Shown here in pieces: positions 1 to 12,317 of a stretch of 12,317 bases of DNA. Every line of letters begins with the position of its first letter. The first letter of the stretch is position 1. A program made the translations under genes and the position numbers. The notes under the pieces were generated by a model that ran no database searches, was not told the DNA's origin, and saw nothing but the letters and a program-made list of their open reading frames with translations. Origin of the DNA: a virus (Duplodnaviria; Heunggongvirae; Uroviricota; Caudoviricetes). The DNA lies in the IMG/VR virus record IMGVR_UViG_2802429246_000010, positions 1 through 12,317 of that record. One strand, written 5' to 3'.

Positions 1-1632
1 ATGGTAACTCGGACAATGCAACAAAAGTATGATCGTGTTTTATCTGGCGAATCCCATCCATTCCCTGGCATATACGAGGCGGTTTCCGAACAACTCCTTT
101 TGCTCATCTTTAAGGCTCGTCAGCTATATCAGAATCCAGAATATCGCCCCTGGTTTGAAGAACAGCACAGAGTTCTCTCTGCATTACGTGCTAATACAGA
201 GCTCTTGAGAATATTTAGAGAACAAAGAAACGCGGAAGAACCAGAGCTTATTATTAAAGAATCTACATTACCCCTACTCACTAATTCTAATCTTACAGAT
301 GCGCTTAATATTATGTGCCATTTATACAATGGTTTTGATGAAGGAAATATCAGTCTGAAAACCTGGGGGGCGATGCAAGAGGTACAGACAACATCAACCT
401 TTATCAGCCCGGGACCGAGAACCTGGAAAACACCTGAACTGGCAAAGTTTGTAGGAGATGATTTATTTAATATTCTGACTGAATGTAAAGCCTGGAGTTC
501 ACCAATTCCAGCAGAAACCCGACAGGGCTATTGCCATCAGGATCTGTCTGTTGCACACTCCTGCACCTCAGAGTTACTGGCACACCTGAATCAATACCAT
601 GAAATTGATGAATCAGCAATACTTGCCAGAGTTATTGGTATGACGGTTAACGGATTCTACAAGAAAAATAATACAGACCTCCCAGAATGGCTATCCCCCT
701 TTAAAGAGGAACATAAAATATTCAGAGATTGTCTGGAGCAAAAGACCGAGGATGTAATCAGACTGAAAGAACAACTGTTGAAAACAGGACGTTCAGAATT
801 CGTGAATAATTTGTGTCGGGTCGCCAACTGGTATGAAATTAAGTCAATATACGATGAATATGTCCGTCTTTATGCCAATGAAATCATTGGTTGGTTCAAC
901 AAAACCATGGAATATTTTAAACCAACAGATTTTATCCGATATACATGGAAATTCGCAACAGTTACTCCAGGTAAAGAGACAGAAACCAAGCATACAACTG
1001 CATGGGAAAAGGATTATTGCCAGATAACTATACAACGTGATGAACTTCTGAGATTGATTCACACGAATACCCTTCAGGATGCAGTAATTTATCTTTGCCA
1101 TTGTCTGCAGAAGAAATACAAGAAATCATCCCAAAATGAGATAGAGTTTCCAGGAATAAAACCTCCGGCATCAGAGAGTGAAATTAATATAACAGATAGT
1201 TTTGAATTTTATTCTCTCCTGGAGCTCAGTAAAGATAATGAGAGACGGCTGGAAACATTTCAAAAATGGTATGAAAAAAATAAAGTTTTGTTAGAAAGTC
1301 ATAAACAAAAACGAACAGAGAAGATTGACGTTGCCGTACGACTTGTAGGGCTGAAAGCCTATGATCTGCATGAAGGGATTCCGGATAGTCCAAAACGAAA
1401 AGTTAAAGATGGCATAAATGAAGACATCAAAGCCGATACCAGTTTACGCCTGCCAAAGACAAATATAAGTGATACGTCGCTAAACCGTTATCGCCGCACT
1501 GTTAAGGAGATTATCAATAACGAAATCGACGCATTCCTGTTGGAACAGAAGAAAAAAAATAAAAGATTTCCCTACAGTGAAGATAGAGATGTGATTCGAC
1601 CTTTATGGGGAAAATGCCTGACCGGGCAGTAG
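1..1632 (+). CDS. hypothetical protein (543 aa), AT-rich accessory/cargo gene; ATG sits at position 1 so the true 5' end may lie beyond the window
   Basis: Uninterrupted 1632-nt ORF with coding-like amino-acid composition; noticeably more AT-rich than the rest of the window; followed by a hairpin terminator; no motif I can recognise by eye. Confidence 0.5.
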   Translation: MVTRTMQQKYDRVLSGESHPFPGIYEAVSEQLLLLIFKARQLYQNPEYRPWFEEQHRVLSALRANTELLRIFREQRNAEEPELIIKESTLPLLTNSNLTDALNIMCHLYNGFDEGNISLKTWGAMQEVQTTSTFISPGPRTWKTPELAKFVGDDLFNILTECKAWSSPIPAETRQGYCHQDLSVAHSCTSELLAHLNQYHEIDESAILARVIGMTVNGFYKKNNTDLPEWLSPFKEEHKIFRDCLEQKTEDVIRLKEQLLKTGRSEFVNNLCRVANWYEIKSIYDEYVRLYANEIIGWFNKTMEYFKPTDFIRYTWKFATVTPGKETETKHTTAWEKDYCQITIQRDELLRLIHTNTLQDAVIYLCHCLQKKYKKSSQNEIEFPGIKPPASESEINITDSFEFYSLLELSKDNERRLETFQKWYEKNKVLLESHKQKRTEKIDVAVRLVGLKAYDLHEGIPDSPKRKVKDGINEDIKADTSLRLPKTNISDTSLNRYRRTVKEIINNEIDAFLLEQKKKNKRFPYSEDRDVIRPLWGKCLTGQ

Positions 1633-1640
1633 ATCACTGA

Positions 1641-1676
1641 GGGGATAACAGCCCGGTTATCCCCTGTTTGTTCTGC
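1641..1676 (+). terminator. rho-independent terminator downstream of the 543-aa ORF
   Basis: 9-bp stem GGGGATAAC (1641-1649) / GTTATCCCC (1656-1664) with 6-nt loop, followed by TGTTTGTTCTGC. Confidence 0.5.
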
Positions 1677-1718
1677 TTCAGGTTGCCAGAGCTCTAGGAA
1701 CACGAGGCAATCGGCAAA

Positions 1719-2315
1719 TTATGCGGCTTTTCCATTAACAGATTCGGCCACAAGAACGACAGTGTGTTTGTTTCGCTCAGGATGTTCACTCCAGATTTCT
1801 GATTCCGGGATGCTTTCCCCGTCATAACTGATCCGTTCGCCATCAAACGGGTAATACCGTGCGGAATCAGTATCTAAAATAAACACCTTCAGATTCGTTG
1901 AACGACGCGCAATATGCTGCCAGAGAGCTTTTCCTCCTTCATATTGCTCGTTATCACTTAATAGTACAACGCCCGCTTTTGTGACTATCGTTTCATAAAC
2001 AAACGTTGCAAGACCAACATCGCGTACAGCTCCATCGACAACAATCCCTTCAATCTGAGCAACATCCTGTTCTTCCCAGAATTTCTGGACAAACACGCCT
2101 TCAAGTCGGGGACGACGCTGAAGCTCCAGAGTGGCAACAACCTTATGGCGAACATCACCATCAATAACAGAAGGTGCAGCTTCGATTACCGCAGCAAACG
2201 GAGTCTTTGGATCCCAGATGATCTGGTAAAGCACGCCCTGAATAGTTACTCCATCCAGTATCGAAAAACGACGGGCTACAGTAGCAGGGGAGTAAGACAT
2301 TGGAATTACAGCCAT
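1719..2315 (-). CDS. hypothetical protein (198 aa from ATG at 2313-2315; the track ORF extends to an upstream GTG at 2345)
   Basis: ATG at 2315 is preceded on the minus strand by AGAGGGGA about 9 nt upstream; coding-like composition; about 100 bp downstream of the integrase on the same strand; no recognisable domain. Confidence 0.5.
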   Translation of the reverse strand: MAVIPMSYSPATVARRFSILDGVTIQGVLYQIIWDPKTPFAAVIEAAPSVIDGDVRHKVVATLELQRRPRLEGVFVQKFWEEQDVAQIEGIVVDGAVRDVGLATFVYETIVTKAGVVLLSDNEQYEGGKALWQHIARRSTNLKVFILDTDSARYYPFDGERISYDGESIPESEIWSEHPERNKHTVVLVAESVNGKAA

Positions 2316-2444
2316 TTTAGAATCCCCTCTGAGTAATACAGGCACGAAAATTTACCTCAATAATTATAGTAAACAATACCAGAGCCAGGCGCATCAACAA
2401 TACTCATCAATTGTACTCAAGTCGTACAACGATCAGGAACGCCC

Positions 2445-3761
2445 TCACCTTCTACCAAACAGATTAACAACATTATTACCTGTCTGCTGTTGGTGGTTAT
2501 TAACCCGGTCCTCCCAGATCTCAAGTGCTCTGCGTTTTTCTGGCAAATAATCGTATCGATCATAATGTTTTGAACTGACATCGTTCAACGCATGATTTTG
2601 AATACGATCGCGGATTTCCTTACTGATTCCAGCTTCTCCCATTAACGTTTTACAGGTCCGACGTAAGTCACGTGCTGTAAAAATTTTAAAGTCAGGATTA
2701 CAAGCCCGGAAATACATGATAGCGCGAGCCAGACTGTCCGTACGAACCGGACGCTTACCATTAGTCGAAAGCGGGAAAATGTAAGGGCTCGATTTTTCTT
2801 TTGTTAACTCCTGCACACAAGATAATTCCTGTAATGCTGATTCAGTCAACGGTATCAAATGTTCTCGCTTATTTTTAGAGACATCCGCAGTCACCAGCAG
2901 CGTTTTTTGCTGAAAATCAACATCACACCACTGACTGGCGATCATTTCGAAGGGACGTTGCCCCCCGGTATAGATACAGAATCGGATCAAATGTTGCATC
3001 AATAATCCAACGTTGGTTGCTTCAGCAAAATGTTCCATTAGAAAACGCAACTCTTCGAGTGTCAGCCAGGTGTCACCGACTTTTTCAGCAGATGACTGTT
3101 TCGGTATCACTGATACCGGATTGGCCTCCAGCCCAAAAGTAATCCCTACACTTGTGTTCATCGGATCGTTATCAGCTTTCAGACCATAGTTAAATGCAGC
3201 CATCAGGTAAGAACGGATCCGGTTAGAGTGAACCACTGCACCGCGCTGAATGATCCCGGCCAGGATATGTTTAATCTGTCCGGAAGTCACATCTTTAGCT
3301 TTAGTCTCACGGGGGATCACTGTATAGCATTCATTTTCAAGGCGTTTCAGAACATCCTGCCATGTTCTCTTATTATCAATTTTCATTTTGTTAACATAAC
3401 CATGAATCAATGCTTCAAATGAGCCCTGTGATTGATGGAGTTGTATCCGCTGCTGTTCTGCAAGCTGTTGTCGCTCCAGTTCTGTCTGGGGATCCTTTCC
3501 TTCAATGAGCCAGGCACCATACTTTTTTGCCAGTTCATTCGCTGTAGCCAGTTTCATCTCAGGCCATATACCCAATTGAATGAATCTTTCTTTTTTCCCT
3601 TTTTCCACGTAATAGCGGAAATAGAAAATTTTGCTGCCAGAAGACTGAACTTTGATGCCAAGTCGTCCAGTGCCACGTTGAGAACTGTTGCTCCAGACAT
3701 AGAACGATGTCTTTTTTGCTTTCAATGCTCGGATAGCTGTTTCAGTTAGATTGACGGCCAT
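2445..3761 (-). CDS. int: site-specific tyrosine recombinase (phage integrase), P4-type with N-terminal arm-binding domain
   Basis: 438 aa; N-terminus (LTETAIRALK...GSKIFYFRYY...ERFIQLGIWPEMKLATA) fits the P4-integrase N-terminal domain pattern; C-terminus has the R...H..R...Y arrangement (ARDLRRT...HALND...HYDRYDY); AAGAGG RBS about 5 nt upstream of ATG at 3761; lies next to a tRNA-derived att core. Confidence 0.9.
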   Translation of the reverse strand: MAVNLTETAIRALKAKKTSFYVWSNSSQRGTGRLGIKVQSSGSKIFYFRYYVEKGKKERFIQLGIWPEMKLATANELAKKYGAWLIEGKDPQTELERQQLAEQQRIQLHQSQGSFEALIHGYVNKMKIDNKRTWQDVLKRLENECYTVIPRETKAKDVTSGQIKHILAGIIQRGAVVHSNRIRSYLMAAFNYGLKADNDPMNTSVGITFGLEANPVSVIPKQSSAEKVGDTWLTLEELRFLMEHFAEATNVGLLMQHLIRFCIYTGGQRPFEMIASQWCDVDFQQKTLLVTADVSKNKREHLIPLTESALQELSCVQELTKEKSSPYIFPLSTNGKRPVRTDSLARAIMYFRACNPDFKIFTARDLRRTCKTLMGEAGISKEIRDRIQNHALNDVSSKHYDRYDYLPEKRRALEIWEDRVNNHQQQTGNNVVNLFGRR

Positions 3762-3808
3762 AGAACCTCTTTTCTAAACCAGTAACAATCAAAATAACTC
3801 GTAAATTT

Positions 3809-3831
3809 GGGTCAGGTAATGGGTCAGGTAA
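3809..3831. promoter_or_regulatory. tandem direct repeat GGGTCAGGTAA x2 (candidate integrase arm-type or accessory-protein site) in the int upstream region
   Basis: Exact 11-bp copies at 3809-3819 and 3821-3831 separated by 1 nt, between the int start codon and the tRNA-derived core; followed by ACAATTA-type AT-rich repeats (3900-3940). Confidence 0.3.
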
Positions 3832-3957
3832 CGATCGTACAATGGAGAAAAAACGGAACCAAGCGGAAACAGAAGCAATTACATAATTACTTGATTATAA
3901 ACAATTAATAAAACAATTACGAACAAACCAAAACAATATAGAATGGACTTGCCTCAT

Positions 3958-4004
3958 GACTCATAATCGCTTGGTCGTTGGTTCAAACCCAACAGGGGCC
4001 ACCA
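3958..4004 (+). other. att core remnant: 47-nt 3' fragment of a tRNA-Ile(CAU)-like gene (anticodon loop through CCA), truncated at the 5' side
   Basis: GACTCATAATCGCTTGGTCGTTGGTTCAAACCCAACAGGGGCCACCA closely matches the 3' part of enterobacterial ileX/ileY-type tRNA as I recall it, with compensatory T-stem changes (GTTGG/CCAAC); the upstream 30 nt cannot form an acceptor or D arm, so this is not a complete tRNA. Confidence 0.65.
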
Positions 4005-4012
4005 TATCTATC

Positions 4013-4050
4013 AAGGGGTTACGTTAACAGCGTGACCCCTTCGTTTTTTC
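4013..4050 (+). terminator. rho-independent terminator immediately after the tRNA-derived core
   Basis: Stem AAGGGGT (4013-4019) / ACCCCTT (4035-4041), 15-nt loop, then CGTTTTTTC. Confidence 0.45.
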
Positions 4051-4330
4051 TAGGATACCTATAGGATACCGTGACAGAGTATAAGCAGGTATAAAAACAA
4101 CAAGTTACGCAACATCATACCTGTCATGAAACTTTAACTATCCGACATGATAGCTGGTCGATGATCACGGATAATCCGTTATGTGGATCCCCATATCGGC
4201 ATCAGACCCACCAGCGTGAAGCGTTTTTCATTTTTCGCGGGTATAAAAAATCGATGGGGCTGGCAGTCCGGAAGACGTCAGGTCACAGGGATTTGACCCG
4301 CCCCTCCCTGTGCATGAGCACAATAAGTAA

Positions 4331-4539
4331 CCGAAGGCGGAATTCCGCCCTCGGTACTCACATATGAGAAACGATATTTCTTCCACCGATACCCTTTATT
4401 TGGGTATCGCGAGTAAGCCCCAAAATCTGGGTGTTACTCTTACTACCCAAACTACGGGTAGTTTCCGTAATTTCATGGTCGAGTTGCAGATCTGCAACTC
4501 ACCCACCAGCGCAACGCTGAAAGCCAGTCAGTAAACTGG
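4331..4539. repeat. cluster of six inverted repeats/hairpins in non-coding DNA, including a perfect 20-bp palindrome at 4481-4500
   Basis: CCGAAGGCGG-AATT-CCGCCCTCGG (4331-4354); CGATACCC/GGGTATCG (4387-4409); ACTACCC/GGGTAGT (4442-4462); GAGTTGCAGATCTGCAACTC (4481-4500); CAGCG-CAA-CGCTG (4507-4519); GCCAGT/ACTGGC (4522-4539). No convincing ORF on either strand. Confidence 0.6.
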
Positions 4540-4560
4540 CTTCGGTCATTGTGCACTACG

Positions 4561-5103
4561 TTACTTGTCTTTATCCGGCTGAAACTTATCAGGCACATTT
4601 CCGGTAGTTTCCATCAGATAATCGGACAGCATTCGCGGGATGTTTTCATCAAGTTTTGTGCATGCGTTACAGGCTCTGACAACTTCTTTTTTCAGGCCAT
4701 CCAGCATGACGGGGGTCATCTGTGGGAAGCTCCTTTGCATAGTAAGCGGCAGGCTGTCCATGATTGATGAAATCTGACTCGCCAGTTTTGAAAGCGCGTA
4801 CATGCAAAACTCTGTATCAATCACGTCACCGCGATCGCGCTCGTTTTTAAGTTCCTGCGCCTCCGCCTGTGCTGTCAGTAATCTGATCCTGACTCGTAAG
4901 AGTTCATCATCATCAATCTCGCCTTTGTCGTTTGTAAGCTGGCTAATTGCATTGTTAACCCTATTGTCTATCACGCTGGCAACATCATAAAACGCCTCAC
5001 GGCCTTTACGTTCAACGGGAGTCACTCCCCACTTGTCGAATGCTGTAGCACTTACCCGGCAGCTTTGCGCCATGGTTTTTTTGTTCATCAGGTGCGATTT
5101 CAT
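4561..5103 (-). CDS. terminase small subunit, lambda Nu1-like (N-terminal winged-HTH cosB-binding type)
   Basis: 180 aa from ATG at 5103 (lambda Nu1 is 181 aa); collinear similarity to lambda Nu1 along the whole length, e.g. LTAQAEAQELKNERD..DTEFCMYALSKLASQISSIMDSLPLTMQRSFP...LDENIPRMLSDYLMETTG against lambda LTRAQADAQELKNARD..ETAFCTFVLSRIAGEIASILDGLPLSVQRRFP...LDELIPGLLSEYIEQSG; a lambda-like cos lies directly upstream. Start is ambiguous (ATG 5103 or ATG 5085). Confidence 0.8.
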   Translation of the reverse strand: MKSHLMNKKTMAQSCRVSATAFDKWGVTPVERKGREAFYDVASVIDNRVNNAISQLTNDKGEIDDDELLRVRIRLLTAQAEAQELKNERDRGDVIDTEFCMYALSKLASQISSIMDSLPLTMQRSFPQMTPVMLDGLKKEVVRACNACTKLDENIPRMLSDYLMETTGNVPDKFQPDKDK

Positions 5104-5109
5104 CAATAT

Positions 5110-5300
5110 CCCAACTTGGTCAAGGTTTCAGGTTGGTGTGTTGGTGTTATCTTTCCCTTTTTATTCATGGAGATAGAGCAAACAACAAAACCACCACCAC
5201 CACCCTGAAAAAGCTCATAAATAGCGAAAAACCGCGAGGTCGCCGCCCCGTAGCCTACCGGATCGCCGGAAAGGACCCGCCAGCCAGAACGGGCCCTAAT
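5110..5300 (-). other. lambda-type cohesive-end site (cos); cosN 12-nt overhang sequence at 5237-5248, diverged cosB-side region 5110-5214
   Basis: Minus strand reads GGGCGGCGACCTCGCGGTTTTTCGCTATTTATGA (plus 5215-5248), matching the lambda left end GGGCGGCGACCTCGCGGGTTTTCGCTATTTATGA at 33 of 34 positions including the full cohesive-end 12-mer; sequence then diverges from lambda before the Nu1-like start. Confidence 0.8.
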
Positions 5301-5304
5301 TTCA

Positions 5305-5688
5305 TCAACCAATCAACTTATAGCGACCATCCCGTGCATTGCGGCGTACACGCTCAATCTTGAGGCATAGCGCCGCATCTGGCTTTTTTGGGACAGGTAC
5401 GCGGCAATATTCAGAAGCTCGAGGAATATTGTTTATCCAGTCGATCACTTCGCTTAAATACCAGGCCTTACGCCCTTCCGTAACCTGTACGCGTTCGGGG
5501 AACTCTCCGCGAGCCTCAAGGTTTAGCAATGTGCGACGGCTAAGGGTAGTAAGTTCCATCACCTGATTCATATCAACAAGGCGTTCACTTAAACGCATTT
5601 TGTCAGCAATAGCCTTTAATTCCTCTACTGCTGGATCCGGATACATCATTTCGGCAATTGGCTTAAGGTCATTGTAATGATTCTGCAT
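5305..5688 (-). CDS. AlpA/Vis-family HTH DNA-binding protein (127 aa, with an N-terminal extension of about 30 aa)
   Basis: Core RLVDMNQVMELTTLSRRTLLNLEARGEFPERVQVTEGRKAWYLSEVIDWINN fits the AlpA pattern; AGGGGGA RBS 5-6 nt upstream of ATG at 5688; stop lies about 57 bp from cosN. Confidence 0.7.
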   Translation of the reverse strand: MQNHYNDLKPIAEMMYPDPAVEELKAIADKMRLSERLVDMNQVMELTTLSRRTLLNLEARGEFPERVQVTEGRKAWYLSEVIDWINNIPRASEYCRVPVPKKPDAALCLKIERVRRNARDGRYKLIG

Positions 5689-5699
5689 TGTATCCCCCT

Positions 5700-6041
5700 T
5701 TACACACGAGCCAGCGGCTGAACAGAAATACCTGAGCCAACAAACGCGGCAACCTTTGCCGACAGTTCTTTTACAGACTCAGGCCAGTTCAGAGCATCAA
5801 CATTTAAAACACCTGTCTTATAAACCTGTGCCTGTGTTTTTTTCGCTGTGTCGATTTGTACAGCGGAAACATAAACCGCTTTGCCTGCGCTCGTTCCATC
5901 CCATACCACTAGCGCACCAGTTGCATCTTCCTGCATCAGTGGCGTAAACGCAGGTATTACCCCTTTATTGGCTGAAAATATCCCCAGCGTAGTAACCAGT
6001 GCTTCAGTGCCAGACATGAGTTCAGTGTAATGAGTAGCCAT
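5700..6041 (-). CDS. head decoration protein, lambda gpD-like
   Basis: 113 aa; TPLMQEDATGALVVWDGTSAGKAVYVSAVQIDTAKKTQAQVYKTGVLNVDALNWPE...AFVGSGISV aligns with lambda gpD [55 protein letters not shown]...AFAGTAISIV; AAGGGGGAG RBS overlaps the stop of the upstream capsid gene. Confidence 0.8.
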   Translation of the reverse strand: MATHYTELMSGTEALVTTLGIFSANKGVIPAFTPLMQEDATGALVVWDGTSAGKAVYVSAVQIDTAKKTQAQVYKTGVLNVDALNWPESVKELSAKVAAFVGSGISVQPLARV

Positions 6042-6050
6042 TGCTCCCCC

Positions 6051-7097
6051 TTAGCCAATGCGAACGGTAACAAAACGATTGATGCGGGCCGGTATTGGCT
6101 GTGGTGCTGAATGTGTCTGCACATATTCAATAGCCGGATCACCAGGCACAATATAGTTTTTCGGTGCAAGTTCGGCTTTAGTCAGCCCCATCCGAATTAG
6201 CTCCGGATCCTGAATACCGCCATAAGCGACAATCCCCTGAAGAGCCGTATTGCCAAGCACCATCAAATCAGGATCAAGGAAATATTTTTCAGTTCCGTCC
6301 TCGTCGGTATAACGCCCGCTGTAAACAACAATCGCAACATCGCCCATATACCCTTTAAAACTCACCGAATCACCAAGGTCTTTAAGGGCCGTTTCCAGTT
6401 CGGAATTAGAACCACGACGGGTATCCAGAGCCTCTTTTATCGCTCTGAATGAACGGTATTTCTTCCATACATTACCGCCCATAATGATGATATTAGTGAC
6501 GCCCTCACTAAATTCTGCGTAGCTCTCAATATCATCATTTGGATCAAAAGTTTCTTTATCCTTACCTGACCACTCAGCACCGCCAGACTGCGTGATAATA
6601 TTTTGTGGTTTTATATTCCAGTCCAGTTCATAACGTTCAATACCATCGCCCTCAATGATATTTTTCCCCGTTGTGATTGCCTGAACAGCAAGCCATTCAA
6701 TACGTGCACGTATAGCTTTAGCCTGATTTACAATCGCCTGTTTAACTTTAATATTACGCGCCCCAAAAGCATTGTATTGTTCAGGTGATACACCAGCAGG
6801 GCGCACAGCTAACTTATTTGGATCAATGCTGCTTTTCGGTTTCATATAGCCAGGGCGAATTGTTTTTGATTCGTATCCCTCATCTCGTGAAACTTTACTG
6901 CCCACCATAGGAGAGCAAAACGCCGCGATCGGGATATTTGGATCGTCGATCGTATCAAGAATAATGTCTCTCGATTCAAACATTACCGAGCGAGTGAAAA
7001 ACAAACTGGTAAACAACGCATTTAATTTTTTTTGCACATCTTCAGCATTAGCCACCTGCACAAGCTGTGTAGGCGAATATAAATCAACCATACTCAT
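6051..7097 (-). CDS. major capsid protein, lambda gpE-like (start at ATG 7097 or 7091; track ORF extends to 7178)
   Basis: Strong collinear similarity to lambda gpE, e.g. ITQSGGAEWSGKDKETFDPNDDIESYA...YRSFRAIKEALDTRRGSNSELETALKDLGDSVSFKGYMGDVAIVVYSG...MVLGNT...GDPA against lambda ITQSGGTEWSKRDKSTYDPTDDIEAYA...FRSFKAVKEKLDTRRGSNSELETAVKDLGKAVSYKGMYGDVAIVVYSG...MVLGNT...GDPA; N-terminus MSMVDLYSPTQL parallels lambda MSMYTTAQLL; AAAGAGG RBS just upstream. Confidence 0.85.
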   Translation of the reverse strand: MSMVDLYSPTQLVQVANAEDVQKKLNALFTSLFFTRSVMFESRDIILDTIDDPNIPIAAFCSPMVGSKVSRDEGYESKTIRPGYMKPKSSIDPNKLAVRPAGVSPEQYNAFGARNIKVKQAIVNQAKAIRARIEWLAVQAITTGKNIIEGDGIERYELDWNIKPQNIITQSGGAEWSGKDKETFDPNDDIESYAEFSEGVTNIIIMGGNVWKKYRSFRAIKEALDTRRGSNSELETALKDLGDSVSFKGYMGDVAIVVYSGRYTDEDGTEKYFLDPDLMVLGNTALQGIVAYGGIQDPELIRMGLTKAELAPKNYIVPGDPAIEYVQTHSAPQPIPARINRFVTVRIG

Positions 7098-7262
7098 CCT
7101 CTTTACATTCATTACAAATAATTGTGAATATATTCTATTACCGATGTCTGCTATGCGAATACATGCAACCAAGTGCAATGTTGTATAAAATATGCCGTGA
7201 CAACTTCAGTGCTGATAATTCGTGTTAATGTATTTACTTCCTTTGGTCGGGATTTATGTAGC

Positions 7263-7302
7263 ATGCCGGAAAATCTATTTTTTTCCGGCATCTTTTTGTT
7301 TG
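7263..7302 (+). terminator. strong hairpin plus T-tract (terminator-like, plus-strand orientation) upstream of the capsid gene
   Basis: 11-bp stem ATGCCGGAAAA (7263-7273) / TTTTCCGGCAT (7281-7291), 7-nt loop, then CTTTTTGTTTG. Orientation is antisense to the surrounding minus-strand genes, so its function is uncertain. Confidence 0.35.
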
Positions 7303-7375
7303 CAGAATTTAAAACGGTATATTATCGCCGTACGGATCATCATTCCCCGACTGTTGTTTTGCCCTGTTCAGTGCG

Positions 7376-7732
7376 TCAGTGGCCTGCCCCTGCTGGCCTT
7401 TTTTTGCCGCCCGGTCGCGCCGTTCGCGCACTGATTACGCTGTCTGCGATAACCTGCCAGCCCTGCCGCGTTTCGCCGTTCTGGCCTGTCCACTGGCTTA
7501 CCTGCATGTTACCCGCCACGCTCACCAGTTCGCCTTTGTGGTGTTTTGCCAGTGCGTCGGCCTGTCTGCCAAACGCCAGGACGGATAACCACATCGTCGC
7601 CGTTCCGTCATCTGCCTGGCTGCACGGAAGGGGGACCGCCATACTAGCCATCGCCATTTGTGTACCCTTGCTGGTGGTCTTTAACTGCGGGTCAGCCACC
7701 AGCCGTCCGTAAGCCGCTATCTGTGCTGTCAT
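7376..7732 (-). CDS. single-stranded-DNA-binding-like OB-fold protein (118 aa) with a basic C-terminal tail
   Basis: Pattern YGRLVADPQL...TMWLSVLAFGRQADALAKHHKGELVSVAGNMQVSQWTGQNGETRQGWQVIADSV parallels E. coli SSB (VGNLGQDPEV...[52 protein letters not shown]); GGAGAG RBS; ATGA start/stop overlap with the upstream gene. Confidence 0.5.
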   Translation of the reverse strand: MTAQIAAYGRLVADPQLKTTSKGTQMAMASMAVPLPCSQADDGTATMWLSVLAFGRQADALAKHHKGELVSVAGNMQVSQWTGQNGETRQGWQVIADSVISARTARPGGKKRPAGAGH

Positions 7733-7971
7733 GCTGTCTGCTCTCCGGTTTTAACGTTGATGGTTGTTACCTGTTCCGCTTCGGCAATCTCCCGTTCTGT
7801 CATCGTGGCAAAGTTTGCAGCTGCCGTTGTCATGAATGCGCTAATCAGTTCGGGATGTGCTTTCGCATATCCTTCCCCGGCGTTGCGGTCGATGATTTTT
7901 ATCGCCACTCTCAGCCAGTGCTCTGTAAGGTCAATAGCGCGGTAGTGTGGTTGTTTGCGGTTTGCCTTCAT
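7729..7971 (-). CDS. hypothetical protein (80 aa)
   Basis: ORF whose stop overlaps the start of the SSB-like gene (ATGA); coding-like composition; weak RBS; first gene after the iteron origin. Confidence 0.5.
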   Translation of the reverse strand: MKANRKQPHYRAIDLTEHWLRVAIKIIDRNAGEGYAKAHPELISAFMTTAAANFATMTEREIAEAEQVTTINVKTGEQTA

Positions 7972-8011
7972 AGTTCAGATCTCAATTTTTCGTATATATA
8001 TACAAAACAGT

Positions 8012-8334
8012 GCGGGTTATGCGGGTTAGCGGGTTAGCGGGTTATCTTCGCTTGCTAAGTATTTTTTATTCATTAATATCAATACATTACAAAATTAACT
8101 GTTTACTGTTTAGCCGTGGCGTAACCCGCAAAATGCTCAAAATAACCCGCAAACGGGGTTTTTTCTGCGGGTTACGCGTGGCTGTTTGCTGTCACTTCCT
8201 GTTATTCATCTGCGGGTTATAATCGCACTTTTGTGGGTTATAACTGCCGTTTTGCGGGTTACGTGCGGGTTATTGATTTCCTTTTTATTCATGCAGTTAA
8301 TGCACTTATACACAGAGTAACCCACATAACCCGC
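8012..8334. repeat. iteron-type replication origin: about 13 copies of GCGGGTTA (both orientations) flanking an AT-rich unwinding stretch
   Basis: Four tandem copies at 8012-8044; reverse copies TAACCCGC at 8122-8129, 8143-8150, 8327-8334; forward copies at 8167-8174, 8212-8219, 8254-8261, 8265-8272; variants GTGGGTTA (8233-8240) and TAACCCAC (8318-8325); AT-rich segment 8050-8110; located immediately downstream of the replication gene. Confidence 0.75.
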
Positions 8335-8357
8335 AACTTTTCACCTCACACAGGGGG

Positions 8358-10481
8358 TTAATCTTCTGCCTCAGGCTGGAACATCAGCACGTAAAAAACA
8401 TGCTGCTTCCCCCCAATTTTGCCGAGAGCCTTTTTCTTGTAACGGCGATCGTTACCCGCTTCCAGCATTCCGGCAGCACTCAACGCGCGGGCAAAGTGGG
8501 ACGGGTTAAATCCCTGTGCGATCTCCCCCTCAAACACATGAGGAAACGTGTAAAAACGGAACTCATCATCTTCATTTCTGATACTCCCCTTTCTGTATCC
8601 GGCAAGGTCTTTAATCGGTAAATCACGTTCATCACTGTTTGGGTAAGGAAGGTATCGACTGAACCCGAACGACGACAAAAACGCCTCAGCCTGTTCAACC
8701 ATCTGTTTAAATTCCCTGTTACCCGTGCCGAACTCCTTCACCCAGGCATTAAAGTTATGCTGTATTGCGTCCCGGCATTCCTGCGCGGCCCAGCCAGTTA
8801 CATGACCGGAAAGCACAAGCGCGGCCTCCAGTATGGCGAAACGCTCACCCACGCGGTGGACCTGCTCGCCGTAGCTCTCCGGTATCAGGTTGCGCCACCG
8901 TTCGCGGCATTCCCTTACCGTATCCTTTGCCTCCTGCTGGTGGCCTGCCAGCCATTTAACCCACTCACGACCCGCTGCCCCGTGATTTTCTGTCCAGGCA
9001 TCCTTTAACGCGTCTGCGTGCGCCTTTCCGGTGCTGTATTCGTGAAAGTGCGTGGCTTTTTCCATCGGAACGTTAAGCAGGCGGACAAGCTGCCCCGCTT
9101 TGACTTTTATCCCCTCCGTTTTGAGGAATGTCTCAACGTCCATTTCTCCGGTGCTGATTGCCACCGTGCGCCAGTGTTTTATCTCCCGGTTGCCGCCGTC
9201 CTTCGCCCCCTGTAATTTCCCGGAACCGTTAAACAACGTATAGGCTGACGTGGACACCTCCCGCGCGTTTCCGGCCTGGCCTATTTCATCCAGGGGTAAC
9301 AGCCCGTCGTTGTGCGCCTCTGCCTCGTTAGCGATACCTAACGCTGTGCCGTACCAGGTCAGCCGTTGTGCGTCCGGCTCTCCCCATAAACTTGATGCGA
9401 TGTTCTGCGTGGTGGTTTTCCCTGCCGATGACTGTTCGAAAAGATGTACCCCGAAGCCGTCAGCACCAACAAGGCCAATCAAAGGTGCTGCCAGTGACGT
9501 GGCAACACCCAGCATCATGGACGGATTGCCACCAGCCAGCCGCGCCACGCAGTCGCGCCAGCCCTCCGACGTACCCGCAACCGAATAGCCATTAACAGTG
9601 GCACTTTTTCCGGTAAACAGGATCGGTTTTTCAGAATCACCAATGATTGAGCCGTCCGGCATGATATACGCGCCAAAATGCCAGCCCGTTGTTGTGCTTA
9701 GCTGCCATTCCTCATGGCTTCCGCTTAACTGCATCCAGTCAGCCAGGATAGCCCTGTATTTGCCGTTTGTTGTCACGTTCAGCCCGTGATCTTTAAGCAA
9801 CCGCCAGCCGTCACGGTCGCCAATGCCACCACACGGGATCGCCATTGTGATGACTTCATGGTTTGCTAATTTTTTCCAGCGCATCACGCGGTAATGCTCT
9901 TTACCGATCGTCCCTGTTCCCAGTAGTTCAAGCGGAGAACATAACCACGTCTCAGGCCGGATAATTTCGCCTGACTGCTTATCCACTTTGGGCGTTACCC
10001 AGAAAACACCATCGACGCGACTTTCAACGCGGGGCTTTAATTCATCATCCTGATAGCATGGCTCTTTTTTCTTTACAGGCAGTTCAACTACCTTTTTCTT
10101 TTCCGCCTGCTCTGCCCGTTCACGTTCCAGATATTCACGCCAGTTCTCCCGTTTCTGGCTGTGCATTCCTTCAGGGTAATAATCAGCATCCCTGACACCT
10201 GCCGCTGCCAGTTTCTGCCCGATGGTATTAACAAGCCCCGGACGCAATAACCCCGCCTGATAGAGACGCACGCGATAGCGTCCGTCCGGTACGATTTGCA
10301 GGTTGTCCAGTTCGGCAAGTTGTTGCTCTCCAAGCCAGACAGGAGGCACGTTATCGCCAGCCAGTCGCCCGTCCTGTTCCTGCCACTGCTTCGCATGTGC
10401 CCACGCATCACTACCCGCAAAAATGATGACTTCCGTCATTTTGTCACGTGGCTGGTGTTTTAAATTTGGCGCTTTTTTCAT
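8358..10481 (-). CDS. replication initiator, primase/helicase-like P-loop NTPase (707 aa from ATG at 10481)
   Basis: Large ORF with Walker A-like SSAGKTT and Walker B-like LLPLDEIG motifs; GGAGAGAG RBS upstream of ATG at 10481; start overlaps the stop of the upstream gene (ATGA); cognate iterons immediately downstream. Family assignment is by context and motifs, not by confirmed homology. Confidence 0.8.
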   Translation of the reverse strand: MKKAPNLKHQPRDKMTEVIIFAGSDAWAHAKQWQEQDGRLAGDNVPPVWLGEQQLAELDNLQIVPDGRYRVRLYQAGLLRPGLVNTIGQKLAAAGVRDADYYPEGMHSQKRENWREYLERERAEQAEKKKVVELPVKKKEPCYQDDELKPRVESRVDGVFWVTPKVDKQSGEIIRPETWLCSPLELLGTGTIGKEHYRVMRWKKLANHEVITMAIPCGGIGDRDGWRLLKDHGLNVTTNGKYRAILADWMQLSGSHEEWQLSTTTGWHFGAYIMPDGSIIGDSEKPILFTGKSATVNGYSVAGTSEGWRDCVARLAGGNPSMMLGVATSLAAPLIGLVGADGFGVHLFEQSSAGKTTTQNIASSLWGEPDAQRLTWYGTALGIANEAEAHNDGLLPLDEIGQAGNAREVSTSAYTLFNGSGKLQGAKDGGNREIKHWRTVAISTGEMDVETFLKTEGIKVKAGQLVRLLNVPMEKATHFHEYSTGKAHADALKDAWTENHGAAGREWVKWLAGHQQEAKDTVRECRERWRNLIPESYGEQVHRVGERFAILEAALVLSGHVTGWAAQECRDAIQHNFNAWVKEFGTGNREFKQMVEQAEAFLSSFGFSRYLPYPNSDERDLPIKDLAGYRKGSIRNEDDEFRFYTFPHVFEGEIAQGFNPSHFARALSAAGMLEAGNDRRYKKKALGKIGGKQHVFYVLMFQPEAED

Positions 10482-10777
10482 TTCTGCTCTCTCCACGCGG
10501 CAATCATGTTTTTCAGTTCCTGTAGTTTTTTATCCACATTCACACGTGACACATGGTTATTTCTGGAAAGCGGGATTTCCCGCCTGAATCTGCTAATAAA
10601 GATCTCCACGTTCAGCGAACTATGAAATGAATAGCCATCACGAATAAAATACACACGGTCAAACATTATCGATTTTACTGTTACTCTGTTGCCGTTCTTA
10701 TCCCGATAAATAGCGCCGGGGATAATTTTGGGATGTGCATAACCGCTGGCAGTCAAGCCAGATAAATACGTTCTCAT
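10478..10777 (-). CDS. hypothetical protein (99 aa), translationally coupled to the replication gene
   Basis: ATG at 10777 with GGGGA upstream; stop overlaps the primase start codon. Confidence 0.55.
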   Translation of the reverse strand: MRTYLSGLTASGYAHPKIIPGAIYRDKNGNRVTVKSIMFDRVYFIRDGYSFHSSLNVEIFISRFRREIPLSRNNHVSRVNVDKKLQELKNMIAAWREQK

Positions 10778-10783
10778 GATTAT

Positions 10784-11104
10784 TTATCCCCGATTTGAAT
10801 CAGTATTCGCTTTCTTTATGGCATTTAATGCATCTGTGGCATTTTCAATGGTGCACCGTAACGAAATATCAAAATGTCCAAGCATTGCCAGTAACAAACC
10901 GATATTACCCATATCAATGCGCATGGCCTTTTCGTCATAGTCCTCATTTTCTGACGCATGCCACATCAGGCTACCAATTGACGCAACGGCCATTGATATA
11001 TTGTCAGTCGCCCCATCCGCAGCGGAATAAACCTTTTTAGCAATATCATGCTCACAGTTAAAATGCGGATTAATCAGGTACTGGTAATTTGACATATCAG
11101 GCAT
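10784..11104 (-). CDS. hypothetical protein (106 aa)
   Basis: ATG at 11104 with AGGGGG RBS 7 nt upstream; coding-like composition; start overlaps the end of the upstream small gene. Confidence 0.6.
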   Translation of the reverse strand: MPDMSNYQYLINPHFNCEHDIAKKVYSAADGATDNISMAVASIGSLMWHASENEDYDEKAMRIDMGNIGLLLAMLGHFDISLRCTIENATDALNAIKKANTDSNRG

Positions 11105-11300
11105 GGCACACCCCCTGACGAATACGGGCGGCGAATACCATCACGCAGCCAGCCGGGGATTGCTGGCGTGCTTCCTGTTCGCTGGTGGCCACGATGGTAA
11201 TCACACGCGGTTTTGCGGCGCTCAGGGCGATAAAACGCCAGGCGAATTTATTCAGGTTGTGCGAATCCCGCCCTTGCGGGTGTATGGTATGATTTCTCAT
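11097..11300 (-). CDS. small protein (67 aa), possibly Icd-like (P4-type host cell division inhibitor family); first gene of the leftward operon
   Basis: ATG at 11300 with GAGG 6 nt upstream; MRNHTIHPQGRDSHNLNKFAWRFIALSAAKPRVITIVATSEQEARQQSPAGCVMVFAARIRQGVCHA; the FAWRF...EAR...FAAR pattern recalls Icd-like proteins (from memory, unverified). It is the only coding-like stretch of the otherwise implausible 334-aa track ORF. Confidence 0.45.
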   Translation of the reverse strand: MRNHTIHPQGRDSHNLNKFAWRFIALSAAKPRVITIVATSEQEARQQSPAGCVMVFAARIRQGVCHA

Positions 11301-11337
11301 AGCTACCTCGATACTCTCGTTATCGTTGGTGGTTAGA

Positions 11338-11383
11338 AGCCCTGCGAGTGGTAACGACACTTGCGGGGCTTTGTTTTTTGTTG
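11338..11383 (+). terminator. hairpin plus T-tract (terminator-like, plus-strand orientation) in the divergent regulatory region
   Basis: 11-bp stem AGCCCTGCGAG (11338-11348) / CTTGCGGGGCT (11360-11370) with two G-U pairs, 11-nt loop, followed by TTGTTTTTTGTTG. Confidence 0.3.
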
Positions 11384-11396
11384 CACTTACTGTTAA

Positions 11397-11440
11397 TGTA
11401 CGTACGTAATATTGATGATAATAGGAGTTACGTACGTACA
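11397..11440. promoter_or_regulatory. twin operator: two copies of the self-complementary 10-mer TACGTACGTA (13-bp inverted repeats TGTACGTACGTAA / TTACGTACGTACA) 30 bp apart
   Basis: Copies at 11399-11408 and 11429-11438; the second lies between an AGGAG (11423-11427) and the ATG of the RHH gene; a TAATAT -10-like hexamer sits between the two copies. Confidence 0.5.
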
Positions 11441-11631
11441 TGTCAACATTAAAGCGGGATAAATCACCACGCGGCGAGGGATGGTCGCCGACATTCCAGA
11501 TACGAATTAGCAAAGAACTACGCCAGCAAGTAAACGAGGCAGCAACCGCCGATGGCCTAACCCTCGGCAATTGGTTTAAAGAATTAGCTCGTGCCGAACT
11601 AAAGCGACGTGGCATTGAACCTAAAGGCTGA
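11440..11631 (+). CDS. ribbon-helix-helix (CopG/Arc-like) DNA-binding regulator (63 aa)
   Basis: FQIRISKELRQQVNEAATADGLTLGNWFKELARAEL fits a beta-strand/helix/helix RHH pattern; the gene begins directly after the palindromic operators and is divergent from the replication operon. Confidence 0.55.
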   Translation: MSTLKRDKSPRGEGWSPTFQIRISKELRQQVNEAATADGLTLGNWFKELARAELKRRGIEPKG

Positions 11632-11634
11632 TGT

Positions 11635-11760
11635 ATGACTGAAAAGCAGACCGATAACAAACTTTCTCTACCAGAGAATAAACCAGCAGGCTTCTTACCA
11701 AGAAAAATCCTTGATGAGATCAAACGCCGCCAGCGGCGCAAGGCCAAAGAGCTGGAGTAA
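11635..11760 (+). CDS. small basic ORF (41 aa), not in the supplied track
   Basis: ATG 4 nt after the RHH stop with AAGG upstream; MTEKQTDNKLSLPENKPAGFLPRKILDEIKRRQRRKAKELE; plausible but too short to judge by composition. Confidence 0.3.
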   Translation: MTEKQTDNKLSLPENKPAGFLPRKILDEIKRRQRRKAKELE

Positions 11761-11817
11761 CCATCACCAGCGCCGTGGTGCGGTGAACTGTGGCGCACAG
11801 GGTTACAGGTATCTACG

Positions 11818-11997
11818 ATGACTGACAAATCATTAAAGAAATTATCCTCATCCAAGAAAAAACAACGCAAAAATGCGGTAAACGAACATGAACCGGAGAG
11901 ATTCGCACCATGTGCGTTTATCCTTGAGAAGTACCTTAAAGAGTATTCTAGGAAAATACGCTCATTGCAGGCATGGCAGCGAATCGAGCCAGACTGA
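11818..11997 (+). CDS. small basic ORF (59 aa), not in the supplied track
   Basis: ATG at 11818; MTDKSLKKLSSSKKKQRKNAVNEHEPERFAPCAFILEKYLKEYSRKIRSLQAWQRIEPD; N-terminus resembles the 41-aa ORF (MT-D/E-K); weak RBS. Confidence 0.25.
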   Translation: MTDKSLKKLSSSKKKQRKNAVNEHEPERFAPCAFILEKYLKEYSRKIRSLQAWQRIEPD

Positions 11998-12107
11998 TAG
12001 CATTGCCCACCAGCCAACAACCTGGTATTCTGGATATGCTCAAGTTTAGTGTTATGCCACTGGCGGCCCTCTGCGGTCGCCTTTGTTTTATGTGCCATCA
12101 CTCCCCC

Positions 12108-12317
12108 TTACACCGTCTGCGTTCTGCGAGTGGATGCAAGATAAGCATCGAGATCAGTGCGCATATACAGCACTTTGCGCCCCAGCTTATGGAAAGGGAT
12201 TTTTACCTTGCCAGTACAGGCCCAGTTCGCCAGCGTTTGATTGTTAACGCCAAGGTAGGCAGCAGCTTCAGCACGTGTAAGGCGGTCAGTTGATAAATCA
12301 GATTTCTTTAAATTCAT
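12108..12317 (-). CDS. excisionase/AlpA-family HTH DNA-binding protein (69 aa; start codon at the window edge, so it may extend upstream)
   Basis: LTRAEAAAYLGVNNQTLANW...GKVKIPFHKLGRKVLYMRTDLDAYLA matches the excisionase-type HTH pattern; position and orientation suggest an int-alpA-type pair with an integrase beyond the window edge. Confidence 0.7.
   Translation of the reverse strand: MNLKKSDLSTDRLTRAEAAAYLGVNNQTLANWACTGKVKIPFHKLGRKVLYMRTDLDAYLASTRRTQTV

Follow-up and report, generated by a model that had tools for sequence, protein, structure and literature searches.

The window analyzed here is a 12,317-nt stretch of DNA from a virus of the class Caudoviricetes (IMG/VR record IMGVR_UViG_2802429246_000010, positions 1 to 12,317), an EcCICFT073-like phage-inducible chromosomal island (PICI) of Escherichia coli, and positions 8012–8334 of this window are very probably the replication origin of this EcCICFT073-type element, as judged from the sequence and from analogy with characterized islands. 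The assignment is carried by a dense array of short repeats (iterons), by a geometry of these repeats that is conserved in relatives, by the co-variation of the repeats with the C-terminus of the adjacent replication protein (Rep), and by the homology of Rep to the Rep of SaPIbov1, a Staphylococcus aureus pathogenicity island (SaPI).

The 8-mer GCGGGTTA occurs in 11 exact copies in the window, all of which lie inside the 323 bp of 8012–8334 with none elsewhere, whereas 0.29 copies are expected by chance and none of 200 shuffles gave more than 2. A search allowing one mismatch revealed two copies of GTGGGTTA at iteron positions, one on the plus strand (8233–8240) and one on the minus strand (8318–8325). 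As both sites read as perfect GCGGGTTA in four of five other E. coli strains, they are taken as genuine iterons, bringing the total to 13. Nine of these are on the plus strand (starts at 8012, 8021, 8029, 8037, 8167, 8212, 8233, 8254 and 8265) and four on the minus strand (8122, 8143, 8318 and 8327). Most GCGGGTTA copies are directly preceded by a T, and the effective unit is therefore the 9-bp TGCGGGTTA. A further one-mismatch copy, GGGGGTTA at 8353–8360 on the plus strand, overlaps the rep stop codon and was not counted as an iteron. The array resides in a 386-bp non-coding gap (7972–8357) between the stop of a 707-amino-acid gene, rep, and the start of an 80-amino-acid gene, both on the minus strand, and it begins 23 nt past the rep stop codon (8358–8360). 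An earlier sequence-only reading had counted about 13 iterons in both orientations at 8012–8334, directly downstream of a helicase gene, and both the count and the position are borne out.

Read on the plus strand, the array consists of two tandem units of the same polarity (8012–8150 and 8212–8334) and a lone iteron at 8167. In each unit, four plus-strand iterons come first and are separated by an AT-rich spacer from two inverted iterons on the minus strand. In the unit proximal to rep, the four plus-strand iterons (8212–8272) are spaced by 21, 21 and 11 bp, which places them on one face of the helix. They are separated by AT-rich spacer 1 (8273–8317; 45 bp, GC content 0.31) from a convergent minus-strand pair at 8318–8334, in which the GTGGGTTA copy and the GCGGGTTA copy at 8327–8334 are 9 bp apart and lie 24 and 33 nt past the rep stop. 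This spacer, kept in all relatives, is a candidate melting region. In the distal unit, a tandem block of four contiguous plus-strand iterons (8012–8044) is followed by AT-rich spacer 2 (8045–8121; 77 bp, GC content 0.30, falling to 0.23 in the lowest 60-nt stretches) and by a minus-strand pair at 8122–8129 and 8143–8150, 21 bp apart. The lone plus-strand iteron (8167–8174) forms an inverted pair with the copy at 8143–8150 and has a counterpart in most loci that possess the distal unit. The GC content of the window overall is 0.465, and the motif TTTTTATTCAT is present in both AT-rich spacers. The earlier reading had placed a single AT-rich core at the center of the origin; AT-rich DNA is indeed flanked by iterons, but as two spacers rather than one core, and the core it had pointed to, spacer 2, sits in an optional distal unit, the universal unit being the rep-adjacent 8212–8334.

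Relatives of Rep were drawn from one genome per species (20 loci), public assemblies (8 loci), EDL933, and two circular records deposited as plasmids. Another 28 loci, from about 20 species, have rep intact, and in all of them an array follows the rep stop codon with the same geometry. Every locus with downstream sequence carries 5–14 copies of one 8-mer within about 350 bp past the Rep stop, and this 8-mer is rare or absent in the remainder of the locus. The repeats are lineage-specific, comprising GCGGGTTA, GTGGGTTA, ACGGGTTA, CGTGGTTC(A), GTTGGTTC(A), CCGGTTCA, GTTGTCCC(A), CTTATCCC(A), GTTGCCTC(A) and GTTGTCTC(A), and all of them fit a single register and a single orientation relative to rep. 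Nearest to rep are 2–3 adjacent iterons at about +24 and +33 (range +22 to +45), the distance from the rep stop to the first iteron being 24 nt in the window and 22–30 nt in related loci. The proximal AT-rich spacer that follows is mostly 45 or 57 bp long with a GC content of 0.12–0.33, and past it are 3–4 iterons in the opposite orientation, with the 11/21/21-bp spacing kept in most loci whatever the iteron sequence. This Rep-proximal unit, which corresponds to 8212–8334 in the window, is present in all loci. A second unit, consisting of one plus two copies, a second AT-rich spacer and 3–4 contiguous copies, is found in roughly half of them. A separate arrangement was observed in Yersinia pekkanenii (L013), where a 6.5-kb locus with a frameshifted Rep contains three GTTGGTTC clusters (143–403, 4725–4985 and 5906–6196) that may represent a tandem or rearranged satellite array.

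This distribution suggests that the Rep-proximal unit would be the conserved minimal origin and the distal unit (8012–8150) an accessory second Rep-binding region. An alternative is that the array, or at least its distal part (8012–8174), binds Rep chiefly in a regulatory or auxiliary capacity, serving as an operator of the genes for the 80-amino-acid protein, the single-stranded DNA-binding protein (SSB) and the capsid, as an enhancer resembling crr of P4, or in handcuffing or copy control. About 12 loci have no distal unit, among them L028 and L029, whose iterons are likewise GCGGGTTA, and in two others this unit lies 1.9–2.2 kb from the proximal unit with genes between them (units at 6540–6650 and 8436–8556 in L037, and at 4269–4379 and 6493–6615 in L021). 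In addition, the distal tandem block usually ends 16–50 nt before the next start codon (at 40 nt in the window and, in L037, 37 nt ahead of perC), and its copy number is polymorphic (3 to 5), all of which would suit such a role. Nevertheless, this explanation is considered unlikely. A scan of 7700–8600 found no sigma-70-like promoter on either strand, the distal layout is the same as the proximal layout, and the distal unit also has the most AT-rich DNA. Moreover, the regulatory explanation covers the distal half only and is compatible with the proximal unit acting as the origin. When the tandem block at 8012–8044 was compared across loci (L001, L032–L035 and L036), four copies were counted in the window, three in four strains, five in 2015C-3163 and two in EDL933, a variation suggestive of slippage or of selection acting on copy number.

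The iterons appear to be recognized by the C-terminal domain of Rep, based on their co-variation across 25 loci (the window and 24 relatives). In Mantel tests on the Hamming distance between iterons, iteron distance follows the divergence of Rep amino acids 595–707 (rho 0.77, p 2e-4) and does not correlate with the divergence of the helicase core (rho 0.17, p 0.06). Relative to the window, the Reps of E. albertii and of locus L024 are 94–95% identical in the core and 37–38% identical in the C-terminus, and their iterons differ at 6–7 of 8 positions. Sliding along the comparison with the E. albertii Rep, identity is 90–100% over amino acids 160–580 and 28–40% over the last ~110 amino acids, with iterons that differ at 7 of 8 positions. 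Reps with about 70% identity in both the core and the C-terminus have iterons differing at a single position, and in L028 (from a Salmonella source) and L029 (from a Logan assembly) the Rep C-termini are 93–97% identical and the iterons are identical. Residues that are constant within and different between iteron types cluster at amino acids 679–701. This pattern supports the earlier proposal that the array defines the specificity of its cognate initiator, as the iterons co-vary with the Rep C-terminus and not with the other nearby proteins.

Those other proteins would be the relevant ones if the repeats were bound by an AlpA-type activator, the DUF4222 protein or the 80-amino-acid protein, for transcriptional control only. 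The setting might accommodate such a binder, with the array occupying a 386-bp intergenic gap of a unidirectional operon and small DNA-binding proteins encoded nearby. However, AlpA is 94% identical between EcCICFT073 and EcCIEDL933, the prototype of the capsid-forming PICIs (cf-PICIs), although the iterons of these two islands are unrelated, and the helix-turn-helix (HTH) protein of the window is unrelated to the EDL933 AlpA although the iterons are identical. DUF4222 is only 34–47% identical among elements sharing the same iteron, SSB is 79–95% identical whatever the iteron, and the 80-amino-acid protein, which L028 and L029 lack, stays conserved where the iterons are unrelated, with 89% identity to the EcCICFT073 version. 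Among the proteins compared, only the Rep C-terminus tracks the iterons, and recognition by another island protein is accordingly very improbable.

A similarly low probability is assigned to the inverted repeats acting through nucleic-acid structure, whether as a terminator, a structured RNA or a single-strand initiation hairpin. As single-stranded DNA, the minus strand does fold better than shuffled sequences (z −4.9), and the copies at 8143–8150 and 8167–8174 can form a hairpin followed by TTATTTT on that strand. Yet a strong fold is a by-product of having one 8-mer in both orientations, and the orientations are unequal (nine versus four), with four contiguous direct repeats that cannot pair mutually. 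Structure would also not require all stems to share one sequence, and the 11- and 21-bp spacings point instead to helical phasing on duplex DNA. Furthermore, there is no Rfam match in the window, and the terminator-like sites are on the plus strand only while the genes are on the minus strand.

Other candidate origin features were considered and set aside. Plasmid-type iteron origins (pSC101, R6K and RK2) have 17–22-bp direct iterons, a non-helicase winged-helix Rep and conserved DnaA boxes, whereas the iterons here are 8–9 bp long, lie in both orientations and accompany a helicase. A lone DnaA-box-like site, TTATACACA at 8306–8314, and a match to the integration host factor (IHF) consensus at 8077–8089 are neither above chance in the window nor conserved in relatives with other iterons.

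The rep gene (8358–10481, minus strand) encodes a 707-amino-acid DUF927 (MCM-like) helicase-initiator that is homologous to SaPIbov1 Rep and to SCCmec Cch; the open reading frame (ORF) lister starts the gene at GTG 10496, which yields 712 amino acids. Rep matches SaPIbov1 Rep (PDB 8tch) by sequence (E 5.8e-15) as well as by fold, and it also matches Cch (PDB 5dgk) by sequence and by fold; sequence identity in the structural alignments is low, at 13–16%. The candidate iteron-recognition domain, amino acids ~595–712 in the 712-residue numbering, is encoded by 8361–8714 (minus strand) and is probably a winged helix. Low-confidence models of this region contain a helix, a helix and two strands, plus a basic hairpin (RRYKKKALGKIGGKQ), a suggestive order that fits a winged helix and does not establish one.

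The N-terminal ~150 amino acids of Rep (10050–10481, minus strand) are common to the Pri-Rep of EcCICFT073, whose helicase class is unrelated. By BLASTP, the first 231 aligned residues of Rep are 50% identical to the CFT073 Pri-Rep and the remainder is unrelated. This N-terminal domain yields a confident alpha/beta model (predicted local distance difference test, pLDDT, 77–90) with only generic similarity to TOPRIM folds, while other relatives have longer N-termini in its place, some with a real TOPRIM domain (L037). No primase or TOPRIM domain was found in Rep by Pfam or NCBIfam, even at E values up to 10 for amino acids 1–170, and no DxD motif is evident by eye in its N-terminal sequence. 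The gene had earlier been called a primase/helicase, of which the helicase, as a DUF927 protein, is retained and the primase is not.

Several points weigh against assigning the origin to this array and its reading to the Rep C-terminus. The only Pfam match of the C-terminal 125 amino acids is a weak one to HTH_56, "Cch helix turn helix" (E 5.9e-4), which is below the gathering score and seen in 3 of 18 family members. AlphaFold2 models have a mean pLDDT of 53 for the C-terminal 148 amino acids alone and of 59 for full-length Rep, with the C-terminus below 50, and a PDB profile search with an 18-sequence alignment of the C-terminus gave no significant match. As no primase domain was found in Rep, priming must come from elsewhere. 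Either of the two AT-rich spacers could be the melting site, and the distal unit, which many relatives do without, may serve a purpose other than that of an origin. The co-variation could partly reflect linkage, with the C-terminus and the array being swapped as one block; linkage could explain their co-inheritance, but not the concerted change of all 6–13 copies per array. Lastly, what speaks for binding, melting and replication comes from homology to the SaPI Rep and origin and from analogy with EcCICFT073. On balance, the assignment of the array as an origin in a SaPI/PICI-type arrangement, which the sequence-only reading had also put forward, is favored by the same architecture in 28 further loci, by the SaPIbov1 Rep homology and by the EcCICFT073 precedent.

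In the mechanism we propose for this origin, helper-phage induction and excision would lead the gene adjacent to the array to produce a DUF927, MCM-like, self-loading hexameric helicase, whose C-terminal domain (probably a winged helix) would recognize the 9-bp unit. The convergent iteron sets flanking an AT-rich spacer would position Rep rings such that the spacer melts and the helicase loads, after which host priming and polymerase functions together with the SSB of the island would copy the island. A more tentative extension, possible though doubtful, is that the origin is functionally bipartite, with the proximal unit as the initiation site and the distal unit as a separable, crr-like Rep-binding element, and that the pairs of C-terminus and iteron constitute a recognition code. 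If so, the distal unit would enhance or control replication, or would couple Rep occupancy to the expression of the downstream SSB and capsid genes, and at least 10 natural pairs of Rep C-terminus and iteron would provide a readable code predicting the compatibility groups of PICI replicons.

Of 5426 complete E. coli genomes, 252 (about 5%) carry the Rep C-terminus together with the proximal unit, O157:H7 EDL933 being one of them. Two circular records (L037, NZ_CP148430.1; L038, NZ_CP069874.1), 12.2 and 16.0 kb in size, were entered as small non-mobilizable plasmids but are complete circular PICI and cf-PICI genomes that carry integrase, AlpA or Icd-like genes and a DUF927 Rep, one of them with a capsid module, and the DUF927 Rep with its array is their only replication gene. 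These circular records are consistent with an episomal life, without being proof of it. In L025 and L026 (Salmonella and other hosts), the same family of Rep and origin adjoins a fused Clp-protease/capsid gene belonging to another morphogenesis module, and the Rep-origin cassette thus moves between satellite types.

In total, these results locate the predicted cis-acting replication site and the predicted specificity domain of an E. coli satellite replicon, and they indicate that the same Rep-origin cassette is exchanged between classical PICIs and cf-PICIs. The types of iteron and C-terminus would offer a simple sorting of satellites into replicon specificity groups, and natural domain swaps are available for studying how self-loading helicases read an origin. 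The current picture of PICI replication is unchanged, this kind of origin being already known; what is added is the map of specificity between C-terminus and iteron and the separable distal unit.

Between 12317 and 4561, every gene lies on the minus strand, in a unidirectional operon. In order along that strand are an HTH protein, an Icd-like peptide, DUF4222, the DUF927 protein, the iteron array, the 80-amino-acid protein, SSB, a lambda E-like capsid protein, a D-like decoration protein, an AlpA-like HTH protein, lambda cosN and a Nu1-like small terminase (TerS), and this order matches that of EcCICFT073 (locus L003). The 80-amino-acid gene (7729–7971, minus strand; phrog_1231), located 3' of the array, is a conserved flank beyond the swapped module of Rep C-terminal domain and origin. 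The island has a cos site of lambda type and encodes a TerS-like protein of its own, with the exact lambda cosN cohesive-end sequence GGGCGGCGACCT at 5237–5248 (minus strand) just upstream of the Nu1-like gene (4561–5106, minus strand). The island encodes this Nu1-like TerS, and the cosB of lambda consists of repeated TerS sites, yet it is extremely improbable that the array is itself a packaging site of cosB-like TerS sites, as the exact cosN lies 2.8 kb away from it and the same type of array follows rep in cf-PICIs with an unrelated P27-family TerS and an HNH endonuclease. The Nu1-like protein of the window has no similarity to the 144-amino-acid EcCICFT073 ORF with which it was compared.

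Additional observations concern the neighboring genes and the ends of the window. The DUF4222 stop and the rep start overlap as ATGA (10478–10481), and the same overlap is annotated in A36, CFT073 and EDL933, which suggests translational coupling of the two genes. A 334-amino-acid ORF at 11097–12101 (minus strand) matches a known family, the Icd-like cell-division inhibitor, with only its last ~45 residues; the RefSeq annotation of strain A36 has just the short Icd-like gene, and the longer ORF is probably an over-call. Beyond the packaging end of the PICI is a second tyrosine integrase (2445–3761, minus strand), alongside two large ORFs (1–1632, plus strand, 543 amino acids; 1719–2345, minus strand, 208 amino acids) for which no Pfam, NCBIfam or PADLOC match was found. 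The same arrangement of this integrase and the two ORFs is present in strain A36, and 1–3761 of the window resembles a distinct island that has inserted next to the PICI in tandem. The PICI's own integrase, which adjoins nfeF in strain A36, is probably located past the window's right edge.

Among known systems, SaPI Reps are self-loading helicases whose C-terminal winged-helix domain recognizes 6–12 iterons just downstream of rep, and the AT-rich center of the SaPI origin is flanked on both sides by two or more iterons, the two sides pointing in opposite directions (PMC7581432, PMC9371898). The window follows this rule twice, with two minus-strand and four plus-strand iterons around the spacer of the proximal unit and again around that of the distal unit. 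Its likeness to SaPIbov1 and SaPI1 thus extends from the DUF927/MCM-like self-loading helicase initiator, which falls within the SaPI Rep classes (DUF927/MCM-like or P4/D5-like), to an origin immediately 3' of rep with opposed short iterons around an AT-rich center. It differs in having a Gram-negative host, iterons of 8–9 bp rather than 5–6 bp, an array duplicated into two units, and an N-terminal Rep domain of ~150 amino acids in place of a separate upstream pri gene.

The sole Pfam match of the Rep C-terminus, weak as it is, is to the HTH domain of SCCmec Cch, and the related Cch2 binds direct repeats just downstream of its own gene via its C-terminal domain (PMC7581432). In contrast to the island studied here, SCC elements are not phage satellites, and Cch2 has only three 5-nt repeats, with replication in vivo not shown. 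In the satellite phage P4, the alpha protein acts as a primase-helicase initiator and carries a DNA-binding domain at its C-terminus. The octamer iterons that it binds (TGTTCACC) are divided between two distinct cis regions, ori and crr, and crr is required in cis. This split recalls the proximal and distal units, between which lie ~2 kb in L037 and L021, while P4 alpha differs in belonging to the P4/D5 helicase class and in having a real primase domain.

Finally, the closest precedents are the E. coli islands themselves. Origins of E. coli PICIs are situated immediately 3' of rep, with two iteron sets flanking an AT-rich region (PMC6092414), and the pri-ori segment of EcCICFT073 sustains a thermosensitive plasmid, an ability that is lost or reduced on deletion of pri or ori (PMC6092414, Fillol-Salom et al. 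2018). EcCICFT073 and the window share the order DUF4222, rep, ori, 80-amino-acid gene, SSB, E-like capsid and D-like genes, the N-terminal ~150 amino acids of Rep, and an origin in the same intergenic gap with a comparable layout of iteron sets flanking AT-rich DNA. They differ in the helicase, which is of the P4/D5 "primase_Cterm" class in CFT073 and DUF927 in the window, and in the iterons, which in CFT073 are TGTCTACC/GGTAGAYA and unrelated to GCGGGTTA. As both the helicase and the repeats differ between conserved flanks, the helicase body and the array have been exchanged together. EcCIEDL933, in which helper induction gives rise to the DNA bands of replication and packaging (bioRxiv 10.1101/2022.09.08.507074), differs from the window in its morphogenesis and packaging module (HK97-type capsid, protease, portal, HNH, TerS and large terminase, TerL) and in the two copies of its tandem block, as opposed to four. 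It nevertheless has the same DUF927 type of Rep, 85.6% identity to the window in the DNA of the Rep C-terminal domain and proximal unit, and 11 exact GCGGGTTA iterons in the same layout.

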